Source: Eledone cirrhosa (lineage: Eukaryota). Taken from it: DNA of 29,149 bases. Location of the stretch: the NCBI GenBank assembly GCA_964016885.1, contig CAXHJY010001655.1:1-29149 (forward strand). Reading direction: 5' to 3'. Every line of letters begins with the position of its first letter. Position 1 is the stretch's first letter. Position numbers and translations under genes: made by a program. The notes below the pieces were generated by a model. The model was given only the letters and a program-made list of their open reading frames with translations, was not told the DNA's origin and did not search any database. This document shows positions 10,340 to 22,018 of this stretch, piece by piece.

Positions 10340-10454
10340 CAGTATTAACAATTGTTTCATTGATCAGGTGAGTCTAAAGGCCGATAATCACTCGAAATTG
10401 CGTCACTCGACCTTAAATACGGTGTGTGTTTCTGATCAAATCATCGGAATACTG
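10340..10454 (-). ncRNA. Type I hammerhead with CCGAUGA core and 64-nt loop II
   Basis: CAGUAUU-CCGAUGA-UUUGAUCAG[64 nt]CUGAUCAAU-GAAAC-AAUU-GUU^AAUACUG; 7-bp stem I and 8-bp stem II. Confidence 0.8.
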
Positions 10455-10647
10455 GAGGGTGTAACACATGGCATTGCTATATATAGATACATTGGAGAAT
10501 CAAGTGAATGAAAACAATAACATCAATAAGAAAAGATAATAATAAAGAAATAAAAATGAAAATGATAAAGATGTAAAAAATAGTTAAAAATAAGTACAAA
10601 ATACGATTACTGATAATAGTAGTGGTGGTGATGGTAGTTGAAGTTAT

Positions 10648-10803
10648 AATTGTTTCTACTTTTGGCACAAGGCCAGCAATTGTTCCAGTGTATTACTGGT
10701 ACTTTATTTTATCGACCCCGTAAGGATGAAAGGCAAAGTTAACCTCGGTGGGATTTGAACTCAGATCATAAAGGGCCGTAACTCTTTGCTCTATACTGCC
10801 AAT
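10648..10803 (-). mobile_element. SINE family A, internal deletion in head
   Basis: Near-identical to 21511-21696 over the first 135 bp. Confidence 0.9.
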
Positions 10804-10829
10804 TATAATGGTGAGTAAGTGGGCGTGTG

Positions 10830-11415
10830 AAATAGTGATGACAGTAAAGATAACAATAACACGAAAAGAAATACGAAATACATGATATGTAGTTTATAGT
10901 GTTTATAGAGTTTATAAGTTGGCGAAATAAAATAAAATTGTAAGGGGTACAATGAAATATCAGAGGATTAAAGTTTAAAATAAAAATAGAAAGTGATAGA
11001 GAGAGAGAGAAAGAGATAAGGAACAGGAGACAGAAAATGAGAATAAGGATTCGAGGATGAGACATAAAGGGTAGGACTAAAGATGGGGAGGCAGTAGATA
11101 GATAGATAGAGAATAAAAAGTGAAAGGGCGGTGATGATATATGGGTGATTAAGTTCTGGTAGACCGATTGTTTCATCTTAATGGAGGTGATGCGTCTATA
11201 GAAAGAGAGAGTGAAAAAAAGGTTGGGAGATTCATGATGTTGATTTAATGATCGGTTGGTCGGTTGACAGCTAATAATAGTGGAGTGGTGTGAAGCTAGT
11301 ACATTAAAATCCGGGTGGATTTGACTGAATTCTGAGATTGCTGGATCGAATCATGCCGGTTGTGGTTTAAAGTTAGAGAACTTCGTGGCTGCTTTGTGCC
11401 TACAGAAAATTGTTC
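10830..11415 (-). mobile_element. Probable PLE 3' end (ORF C-terminus plus CT-rich 3' region)
   Basis: 11351-11415 reads TIFCRHKAATKFSNFKPQPA*, resembling TCQHYHRHSFHNFKP at 6177-6235; only a GAAAC-AAUCG-GUC remnant near 11160-11175. Confidence 0.45.
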
Positions 11416-11674
11416 GCTCTATTTGTATATATGTATAATTATCAATCAATTATAAATAATTAAATTATATTGTTTTTTTTTCTTTAAGTATTGCTTTCAG
11501 CGAATTGTCTTCCCTCACCATTTCATCCATTTAGTCGCCTGTGGACATTTTGTTTTTATATTTTTATGTCAGGTTCGCCATTGTTATCAAACCTATAGAC
11601 TTTCATTTATACACACTTGTAACTTTAAATGTAGATAAATACCATGTCTGTCATGTACACACACACACACACAC

Positions 11675-12482
11675 ACTAGCTTCGTTCCTGTTCATATTAA
11701 CACTCGACTATCCAATGAGAGAAGCTATCATGCTTATCAAACAGGATTCACACTATATCCTCGACGTAGCACTTGGCACCCTGAAATAACAATAACTGAT
11801 ATTGATTTTCGAAAAAGTAGAGCTGTTGTTGCAGAGAGTGGAATGGGCTGTTGAAACAATTCGACTTCAGTATGAAGAAGACTGTTCACCACCAATCTGC
11901 ATGCAACCAGAAAGAGAGTTATATTGTGTCACAAAAAGAAAATTACCTAAAAAGAGTTGAGGATTTCAGGTATCTTGGTTCGTGGATCAACATCTCAGAA
12001 AAAGTCATGAACACCAGAATTAACTTAGTCTGGACAGTTGCAAACACAATGGATGTAATCTGGGAATCAAACTTGAACACCAAACTAAATGTTAAGCTCC
12101 TTGATCAACAGTTGAAAGTCTGGGTGTGTATAGAGCGGAATGCAGGACACTCGCATAAGAAATGGAAAGAATGTTAGATAGCACATATACAACACTACTG
12201 AAGAGAGTGAAAAATATACCTTGATGGGAAGTTTCTATACAGCGACTTGAGGCAGATTACATACATCATAAAGGCGAGAAGACTCGGTCTGATGGGTCAC
12301 GTATGGCGAATAGATCAGGCAGAGGTATTACACCTGTTACAGACATGGGAACCCACACATGATAGACAACAAGAGATCAGCCTCATGCTACGTTTCCAGA
12401 GAGGGTTTCAAAAGGCACAAATCTTAGAAAGAATGAATTCGCGGAAGCCATGCTGGATAAGGACAAGTGGAGACCCGACATG
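11675..12482 (+). mobile_element. Degenerate RTE-type LINE (RT C-terminal half to ORF end)
   Basis: [69 protein letters not shown] in shifting frames. Confidence 0.85.
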
Positions 12483-20250: not shown

Positions 20251-20780
20251 TATATATATATATATATATATATGGAAAGAAAGAGATTTATTTAATTATG
20301 TCTCATATAAAATAATACAGCCAACTATCCACGAAATACAATATAGTTAGCACCCCGAACGCATGATTGAGATTATACTCAGGGATATACTAATGTTTGT
20401 TGAGTGAGATGGGAGTTGGTCGGAGTATCGCTAAAAGCTTTCTCTGTTAATGTATTAAGTATATATATATATATAGGGACAATTAAGTTTCTCCCAAGGT
20501 AACTCTCTCTCGTGTTATTATTTTTATTTTTATTTTATCCTTTATACTCTTTCCTTCATTCCTCTACACGCCTTATACACGCCACGCATCTCAACGTACA
20601 CCCACTTACATCTCTCTCTCCACCACCGGATCTTGTTACCCGGAGATTTACCCATTTGCATTGTAGAGGCTTCCAAACGACTTAAAGATATTTACCATAT
20701 ATATATATATATATATATATATTTACTACCATGACTGAATCTTAACCATCTACTATGTCAGGGTATGTCATGCATCATCT

Positions 20781-20847
20781 TATTTTATCTGATGAGGACA
20801 TACTGCTGAACTTAACTCAGTACCTCTGAAATATGTATAATAAAATA
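20781..20847 (+). ncRNA. Minimal type I hammerhead, paralog of 9799-9863
   Basis: UAUUUUAU-CUGAUGA-GGAcaUACUG..CAGUAccUCU-GAAA-U-AUGU-AUA^AUAAAAUA; flanks 20725-20890 align with 9715-9900. Confidence 0.8.
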
Positions 20848-20950
20848 TAATTGATCACAAGAATATCTATTTTGTTAATATTTTGAATTAATATATATAT
20901 ATATATATATATATATATATATATATATATATATATATATATATATATAT

Positions 20951-21443
20951 AAACGGAAAAAATGAAACGAAATTTCATTTCTCACTCTTAGTACGGCTGT
21001 TACTTAAATTATAAGTATGTATACGTACATACATATATGTATACAGACGTACAGTAGTATGTATATATATATACATACATGCACACATATATATATGTAC
21101 GTATGGATTCACCGAACATTTATTATAATGCTCGGTGTGTTTGTAAACAAACATTCCGTATTAAGCCGTACAGTGTCTAGCAACCATCGTTGCTCATTTG
21201 TTCAACACTGACAAAGGAACGCTGTACTAGTTTCAAGCTTATTAGCTATCGTCAGCAACGTATACCTTCCTGTCAGATTGTTGAACGTCTGAAAGTATAT
21301 ACTGTACAGTTTAATACGGGATGTTTGTTTACAAACACACCGAGCATTATAATAAATGTTCGGTGAATCCATACGTACATATATATATATACATATTACT
21401 GTACGTCTGTATACATATATGTATGTACGTATACATACTTATA
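20951..21443 (-). mobile_element. Fold-back cassette with arms 21010-21174 / 21301-21443, central HHR and left tail
   Basis: Arms are reverse-complementary apart from a microsatellite indel and a few substitutions; in (TA)n. Confidence 0.85.
21219..21261 (-). ncRNA. Minimal type I hammerhead ribozyme
   Basis: ACGUUG-CUGACGA-UAGCU(AAUA)AGCUU-GAAAC-UA-GUA^CAGCGU; palindromic stem III ACUAGU. Confidence 0.9.
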
Positions 21444-21510
21444 TTTATATATATATATATATATATATATATATATATATATATATATATATATATAAAG
21501 AATGAATAAT

Positions 21511-21696
21511 TGTTTCTACTTTTGGCACAAGGCCAGCAATTACCCAGTGTATTACTGGTACTTTATTTTATCGACCCCATAAGGATGAAAGGCAAAGTTA
21601 ACCTCGGCGGAATTTGAACTCAGAATGGCAAGGGCCGTAACTCTATGCGTCAAAGCATGGTGTCCGACCCTCTACCATACTGCCAATCCACCGCCC
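21511..21696 (-). mobile_element. Full-length SINE family A with 15-bp TSD
   Basis: Minus strand starts gggcggtgga, A box tggcagtatgg, B box gagttcaaattcc; TSD taaagaatgaataat at 21496-21510 and 21697-21711. Confidence 0.95.
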
Positions 21697-22018
21697 TAAA
21701 GAATGAATAATAACAGGTAGACATCATAAAAAGGTAATTTATTCCGTGTGCTTACAAGTGTTTCCACGGTGGTACTGCAGCCTAGTTATGCTACGTGCAA
21801 ATTCACAAGTACTTGCAGAACTCGAATATCCAATGCTGTGACCACTGTTTCCTCTGCTCTGAGGAAACAGTGGTCACAGCATTGGATATTCGAGTTCTGC
21901 AAGTACTTGTGAATTTGCACGTAGCATAACTAGGCTGCAGTACCACCGTGGAAACACTTGTAAGCACACGGAATAAATTACCTTTTTATGATGTCTACCT
22001 GTTATTATTCATTCTTTA
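21697..22018. repeat. Perfect palindrome: 158-bp arms, 6-nt spacer
   Basis: 21697-21854 is the exact reverse complement of 21861-22018; spacer tgctct; unique tail 22022-22163. Confidence 0.95.
21855..21966 (+). ncRNA. Type I hammerhead with CUGAGGA core and 67-nt loop II
   Basis: UGCU-CUGAGGA-AACAGUGGU[67 nt]ACCACCGUG-GAAAC-ACUU-GUA^AGCA. Confidence 0.75.

Follow-up and report, generated by a model that had tools for sequence, protein, structure and literature searches.

Hammerhead ribozymes of Penelope-like elements (PLEs) are normally short in stem-loop II. In the minimal hammerheads of metazoan PLEs (Cervera and de la Pena 2014, PMC4209133), helix II spans 6-8 bp, and the parts of that paper compared here describe no accessory arm. 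Published hammerheads of the Hydra clade (Craig et al. 2021, PMC8557442), a set that includes Hydra-1_Obim, have a loop 2 of 3-10 nt. Extended natural hammerheads (Perreault et al. 2011, PMC3088659) do bear peripheral structure beyond the core, as do the ribozymes described below, but theirs consists of loop I-loop II or pseudoknot contacts that need matched stems I and II, with no structured arm of 60-80 nt in the parts compared. Here we analyse a 29,149-nt stretch of the Eledone cirrhosa genome (the window, which is the entire contig CAXHJY010001655.1 of assembly GCA_964016885.1; genome 3.0 Gb), in which three hammerheads of a Hydra-clade PLE lineage carry a greatly enlarged domain II.

The reading that we favour, with a probability of roughly 0.4, is that this enlarged domain, a covariation-supported hairpin arm, is where a protein docks, most likely the reverse transcriptase (RT)-endonuclease (EN) of the element itself. 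Hydra-clade hammerheads in the pseudo-long terminal repeat (pLTR) are already published. The long structured domain II with its tandem internal-loop motif appears to be new within the literature compared, in part (PMC4209133, PMC8557442, PMC11167929, PMC3088659, PMC6765202, PMC7229834, PMC5737381 and bioRxiv 10.64898/2026.07.22.740005), in which we found no description of either feature; subscription papers, the alignments of Lunse et al. 2017 and the supplements of PMC4209133 may hold cases with a long stem II.

Three hammerheads from one Hydra-clade lineage

The hammerheads and their arms, with the motif positions discussed below, are as follows.

10340..10454 (-): hammerhead A, type I; stem I 10454-10448/10346-10340 (7 bp), core CCGAUGA 10447-10441, domain II 10440-10359 (82 nt), GAAAC-AAUU-GUU 10358-10347, predicted cut after 10347
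10369..10423 (-): accessory arm A; outer ANU 10418-10416, inner ANU 10407-10405, inner AG 10385-10384, outer AG 10375-10374
19218..19322 (+): hammerhead B, type I; core 19223-19229, domain II 19230-19305 (76 nt), GAAAC-AAUU-GUA 19306-19317
19244..19296 (+): accessory arm B; ANU 19249 and 19260, inner AG 19280, outer AG 19290
21855..21966 (+): hammerhead C, type I; core CUGAGGA 21859-21865, domain II 21866-21950 (85 nt), GAAAC-ACUU-GUA 21951-21962
21876..21938 (+): accessory arm C; ANU 21881 and 21893, AG 21923 and 21932

A sequence-only reading of the window had proposed these as three unrelated hammerheads with a loop II of 64, 66 and 67 nt (10368-10431, 19235-19300 and 21875-21941). Descriptor searches confirm all three at these coordinates: a strict descriptor gave four matches in the window and none in any of 200 block-wise dinucleotide shuffles, which rules out a chance origin, and a loose descriptor gave seven against a shuffle mean of 0.075. 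The core CUGANGA, GAAA-NUH and the three stems are present, with the full core in B and C and a U4C variant in most family A copies. Also as proposed, all three combine GAAAC-N4-GUH with a mismatched first stem II pair, U-U in A (which has an 8-bp stem) and A-G in B and C. Such a mismatch is already known as an extra nucleotide at 9/10.1 (PMC4209133), and a U10.1-U11.1 pair is tolerated in natural hammerheads (PMC3088659).

Stem I measures 5 bp in B and 4 bp in C, and at least 4 bp form around the predicted cut site in most distinct copies of each family (A, 25/28; B, 21/24; C, 35/37). Stem III is a single pair; its loop is palindromic in A and B (CAAUUG), and in C (CACUUG or CAUUUG) two central mismatches remain, so that the family C loop III (ACUU) departs from the fully palindromic stem III of PLE hammerheads. 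Type I topology, a short stem I, a one-pair stem III, a mostly palindromic 4-nt loop III, a mismatch or extra base at the stem II foot and probable dimer cleavage are shared with the minimal hammerheads of PMC4209133. In an Rfam search of the window (E<=1), no hammerhead family appeared among the 150 matches listed of 168, and three short-domain hammerheads of the window were likewise undetected.

The three are not unrelated, as had been supposed. A, B and C are pLTR hammerhead motifs from one Hydra-clade Penelope-like retroelement lineage. The open reading frames (ORFs) linked to such hammerheads carry the Hydra hallmarks, taken from the parts of PMC8557442 compared: RWK, DKT, a CxCX5C linker, CxxC and CxH in C, and (TA)n targets, with no cysteine pair inside GIY-YIG and no CCHH. 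The family C protein has RWK (in the translation of locus L201), DKT, CNCHLPERC, CRLC and CNH; that of a further family, E, has RWK, DKT and CxCX5C. Both lie in a single ORF, RT then C-terminal GIY-YIG, as seen in frames of 736 and 739 aa with YxDD. The Pfam matches for GIY-YIG (E 2e-4 to 6e-4) fell slightly short of the curated cut-off, and Pfam returned no RT match for the family C and E frames. In eight motif-bearing families the hammerhead lies 380-910 nt 3′ of EN on the same strand (a link obtained for 8 of 13 motif clusters); for family A the distance to the GIY-YIG domain is 635-776 nt, same strand, in other genomic copies. A pLTR hammerhead 3′ of EN, inverted 5′ arms and (TA)n insertion are all present, and named homologues come from Acropora, Sanderia and Argonauta. 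In protein hallmarks, (TA)n targeting, inverted 5′-truncated arms and a sense type-I hammerhead in the pLTR, the lineage resembles the published Hydra clade.

In an EN tree (29 rows, C-terminal 400 residues), the nine motif-bearing rows group together with an SH-like approximate likelihood-ratio support (SH-aLRT) of 99 by a quick method. They are nested in a 13-row long-domain group of the E. cirrhosa genome, opposite 16 metagenomic short-domain Hydra rows; these metagenomic relatives formed the outgroup, with the published Hydra reference sequences left out, and a first EN tree had an unresolved root. Between A, B and C, identity is 53-57% over the 60 nt after the cut site and 29-40% between domains II.

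Domain II is a hairpin arm with a tandem ANU/AG motif

The inserts of A, B and C are hairpin arms rather than loops. Each arm contains, twice, an internal loop of 5′-A-N-U opposite 5′-A-G, with a Watson-Crick closing pair whose identity varies. Along the 5′ strand the loops are in most cases separated by 10-12 nt, along the 3′ strand by 9-10 nt, or about one helical turn. The window copies of A and B each have one letter changed in the inner AG (AU at 10385-10384; AA at 19280-19281). A double-motif descriptor matched 16 of 45 clusters of at least 55 nt, leaving 29/45 without a match. After clusters 45 (3/4 copies, off-centre geometry), 50 (1/4) and 22 (1/6) were dropped by eye, the double motif is retained in 13 clusters of matching geometry, including A, B and C. 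Their domain II of 78-97 nt (76-97 nt when the window copies are counted), with its double internal-loop arm, sets them apart from the canonical short loop 2 of Hydra hammerheads. Copies carry the double motif in 21/28 (A), 19/24 (B), 34/37 (C) and 13/13 (E) cases, against 1-13% in shuffles.

Several lines of evidence support pairing along the arm, the covariation check that the sequence-only reading had suggested. First, across cluster representatives (one each), closing pairs alternate between U-A (6) and C-G (7), G-C (9) and A-U (4), and G-C (11) and U-A (2). Second, five pair positions that the descriptor does not force are paired at 0.71 within family against 0.44 across families (0/20,000 permutations). 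Third, MAFFT alignments made independently of structure are 88.7% paired, with double changes at 7/15 pairs (22 cells against 6.3 shuffled); slid registers of that alignment give 36-45%, and 25-47% over all MAFFT alignments counted. The outer motif is 90% paired across 14 rows, with a covariation of 0.453 against 0.208, and the A superfamily MAFFT alignment is 88.6% paired. In alignment A4 the outer motif alone was counted, since MAFFT put five rows out of register; alignment A5 was made without families C, 47, 52, 49, 40, 42 and 43. Finally, a covariance model built without family C locates the C arm at its exact position on both inverted arms, weakly (E 0.11).

This structure persists although domain II identity among the 13 clusters is 0.34, against a shuffled baseline of 0.31. 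A strict pattern, with one spacing alone, has at least 7,044 genomic matches against 32 in the control, and the listed matches include further subfamilies whose unspecified mid-stem letters pair by eye. One-sided changes from G-C to G-U are tolerated in the arm, which indicates that the sense RNA strand is the structured one. We regard it as very probable that the arm is selected RNA structure.

The arm might instead be a neutral fold-back expansion, paired merely so that stem II closes, its common bulges an inherited residue. PLEs readily produce inverted duplications, many other long domains of differing shape occur in the genome, and all motif families have a single ancestor. Against this, the ANU and AG letters and the 10-12/9-10 nt spacing persist in most families while the remainder has drifted to random identity, and selection for pairing alone would purge mismatches, not fix one kind twice. 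We consider neutral residue improbable, the least likely of the four explanations weighed in this work.

K-turns consist of tandem 5′-GA/5′-GA pairs beside a 3-nt bulge. A K-turn or box C/D motif was rejected: no GA is fixed on both strands, which read ANU on one side and AG on the other and have a covarying closing pair (U-A, C-G, G-C). Short words shared by eye, in B and C only, raise the idea of a remnant second hammerhead or a loop III decoy.

Single ANU/AG loops occur more widely, in 8/9 and 14/14 copies of the F families (99-116 nt) and in 10 of 21 GC-rich sequences of 56-64 nt (shuffles 1.1%). This GC-rich group (L236, L285-L314, L352-L365) is very diverse; its ANU/AG-like loop lies at a distance of 14-15 nt from the core, and no link between the group and an ORF was found.

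Long domains are common in the genome and do not by themselves define a class

The similar length of the three inserts had been taken to suggest a structural subclass with an accessory domain. The subclass stands, contains A, B and C and has a conserved structure, but length does not define it. Whole domains II measure 82 nt in A, 76 in B, 85 in C and 66 in a fourth case, D, so that the agreement at 64-67 nt hinges on the chosen stem II cut point. Long domains of 48-116 nt also occur in many families with other architectures, and the 60 long-domain hammerhead clusters span 41-116 nt; a length-defined class was rejected on these grounds.

Genome-wide, the pattern core-N(x)-GAAAC-N4-GUH gave 25,149 matches at x of 8-37 nt (control 3,777), 25,718 at 55-85 nt (control 1,822) and 27,228 at 86-116 nt (control 1,708). 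For this stem III form, the 52,946 matches at 55-116 nt (control 3,530) thus exceed the 8-37 nt class. The 38-54 nt bin (12,288 matches) was left unused owing to heavy contamination by a repeat (L316-L334), by eye the RT coding sequence of a long interspersed nuclear element (LINE), whose sequence fits the hammerhead core pattern at a spacer of 54 nt and which dominates that bin. A fixed-position sample of 600 kb contained 26 hammerheads, of which 6 had domains of at least 95 nt. Descriptors with a short loop therefore undercount hammerheads, and the LINE-like repeat is a source of false positives for descriptor scans.

The fourth case was only partly upheld.

23048..23138 (-): decayed hammerhead D; domain II 66 nt, a long hairpin without the double motif; separate family

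It is a decayed hammerhead copy, with a core of CUGAUAA that has lost G8 and a deletion 5′ of stem I; other family D copies retain the core. It is not a member of the subclass: the clusters of its family lack the double motif, and it falls outside the nine-row motif clade in the EN tree, on an ORF link that is indirect, via an inverted 5′ arm. Its domain II (23063-23128 (-); loci L092-L120) has a differing internal loop, GAU opposite AGUA, which we take to be loop E-like. Directly 5′ of stem I lies an acceptor-like polypyrimidine-UACAG, like that of D. virilis Penelope, and at L132:4954-6753 a ~59-nt tandem amplification of a family-D segment (3′ core plus tail) forms a small satellite.

The arm outlasts stem I, which favours a protein partner over an RNA contact

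In families E and 48, stem I is only 1-3 bp, reaching at least 4 bp in 0/14 and 1/19 copies, yet both retain the arm, with the double motif in 13/13 E copies. Both families (E, L124:8200-8700 (-); 48, L397-L424) are young and abundant, with core and arm intact. Judged by eye, the 3′ strand of stem I in family E could pair with that of the outer motif, which might act as an off-switch.

These families bear on a second explanation, in which the arm is an RNA-only tertiary module: its ANU/AG loops would dock on stem I or on a dimer partner, replace the loop I-loop II contact and speed cleavage. Natural hammerheads do make contacts between loop II and stem I (PMC3088659), dimers are implied by the palindromic loop III (e.g. 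AAUU, GUAC, AUAU) that most motif-bearing copies have, and the core is intact in most families. However, 15-26 nt separate the core from the start of the outer motif, too far for a stem I of 4-7 bp to reach in a monomer, and the motif is retained in E and 48. We therefore judge an RNA tertiary or dimer contact unlikely, placing it second, behind protein docking. That families with 1-3 bp in stem I retain the arm, that the arm lies too far from stem I in a monomer and that its shape is conserved although its sequence has diverged to noise together favour a protein docking site.

The nearest precedent is the PAc Poseidon element of Anolis (PMC11167929, in part), whose hammerhead cleaves only with the PAc protein and whose uncut RNA is the template. 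In E. cirrhosa, genomic copies of five families span the cut site and terminate ~50-66 or 165-220 nt past it. As the copies extend across the cut site, the template from which they were made had not been cut. Together with the two 3′-end classes, this matches PAc, which has an uncut template and a pair of RT starts that define the tail, with a hammerhead likewise upstream of them. Protein dependence is assumed here by analogy with the PAc ribozyme, which belongs to another clade and has an ORF that starts in stem II, as opposed to ~250 nt past the cut here; the parts of that report compared mention no long arm.

If a protein docks on the arm, each motif would present an A-G mismatch, a bulged N and an invariant U-A pair, and two such sites on one helix face would bind protein on the tandem transcript. 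Binding would aid ribonucleoprotein assembly 55-150 nt 5′ of the first RT start, and may gate dimer-dependent self-cleavage in the manner of the protein-assisted PAc hammerhead. We consider doubtful the fuller version of this proposal, a hammerhead with a dedicated docking arm whose two A-G/bulge/U-A sites recruit the telomerase-related RT-endonuclease, couple template selection to the cleavage switch and outlive catalysis where stem I is lost.

A number of observations weigh against protein docking or against the arm that it presupposes. The arm is dispensable for the Hydra clade: among 79 metagenomic Hydra loci, a sense hammerhead was present in 44, all with a domain II of 10-29 nt (many of the remaining 35 contigs are short), and the 26 published Hydra rows (PMC8557442, File S2) have a loop 2 of 3-10 nt. 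The RNA that PAc requires maps to the initial 172 nt of its ORF, and 5′ truncation to +20, beyond the stem II start, is tolerated (PMC11167929). The double-motif descriptor is post hoc, having been written after reading the cluster list, and the double motif was found in 0/10 new clusters sampled by later searches. The covariation counts include no correction for common ancestry, and there is overlap between clusters 38 and 39. RNAalifold recovered just six inner pairs, in the A superfamily; in young C copies the inner motif pairs with a probability of 0.03; and folding z-scores of the inserts are unremarkable (-0.5, -0.9 and +0.2). With default filters the covariance model missed most held-out families (two weak matches in 82 loci); it gave no match in the 79 metagenomic loci, a weak negative given its low sensitivity.

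Copy structure and the 5′ untranslated region

A, B, C and D are dispersed repeat families with 1948, 386, 1176 and 60 first-look candidates, 40 of which were scored for each family. Copies of family A are 94-96% identical and full-length matches of family B 90-97%; family C is young, its full-length copies being 99-100% identical among the matches listed. Copies of all four families are 5′-truncated, frequently with an inverted arm, and have microsatellite ends. The corresponding features in the window are as follows.

10265..11426 (-): family-A Hydra-clade element, 3′ part (pLTR and tail); another repeat interrupts it at ~10646-10802
18995..19123 (-): inverted 5′-truncated arm of the B insertion; a second arm copy with a short deletion and no 5′ core
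21697..22161: family-C insertion; inverted arm 21697-21854 (-, short tail) and main arm 21853-22161 (+, long tail), ending in (TA)n

A non-LTR retrozyme, which consists of short non-coding tandem monomers bounded by hammerheads, was rejected: A, B and C form the pLTR ends of elements that have an ORF, most of them truncated or inverted. Intact family-C tandems run from the GIY-YIG end through the pLTR with its hammerhead to an ATG ~250 nt past the cut site. The insert was also rejected as an ORF start, as the AUG in the stem II of B meets a stop at once and the ATG of C lies at that distance, and as a spliceosomal intron, there being by eye no GT..AG frame common across families. Contigs of three runs (one sample, run kind unrecorded) showed no splice-like joint, which is uninformative on expression.

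This layout bears on a further explanation, in which the arm binds a host factor, such as one that controls export, localisation, translation or splicing through the 5′ untranslated region (UTR) supplied by the pLTR, independently of RT and cleavage. The 5′ UTR does hold the hammerhead, which in C precedes the ATG by ~250 nt and is upstream of an acceptor-like YACAG common to C and E, and the arm is restricted to one host lineage in the data examined; on the other side, no Rfam family matched among the 150 matches listed. A host-factor site also seems unlikely, and we rank it third, below an RNA contact and above neutral residue; docking of the element's own protein remains the reading we prefer.

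Further signals were noted in the same regions. In families C and E, the shared YACAG is followed by an identical 9 nt, ~35 nt before the ATG (L201:1694-1745 (-); L124 ~8350-8400 (-)), and the long-tail end of family C copies falls near a branch-point-like CUAAU. Family A (window ~10455-10490 (-); loci L032-L060) has a TATA-like box ~32 nt upstream of the stem I start, altered in the window copy, and an AAUAAA right past the ribozyme.

The window also contains three type-I hammerheads with a short, 20-nt domain and a remnant of an endonuclease.

4869-4907 (-): short-domain type-I hammerhead
6479-6517 (+): short-domain type-I hammerhead
8758-8954 (+): Hydra-like endonuclease remnant, ~860 nt 5′ of the next feature
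9812-9850 (+): short-domain type-I hammerhead

The position of the last of these, 3′ of a Hydra-like EN remnant, indicates that short- and long-domain Hydra-like families share one genome.

Implications for Penelope-like elements

These results bear on two open questions, why Penelope-like elements retain hammerheads and how their RT recognises its own RNA. The lineage offers a conserved, mutable cis-element together with young, near-identical families that have long open frames. It also supplies natural controls, in families with the arm but no stem I and in relatives with stem I but no arm. All are suited to the published PAc-type in vitro system.

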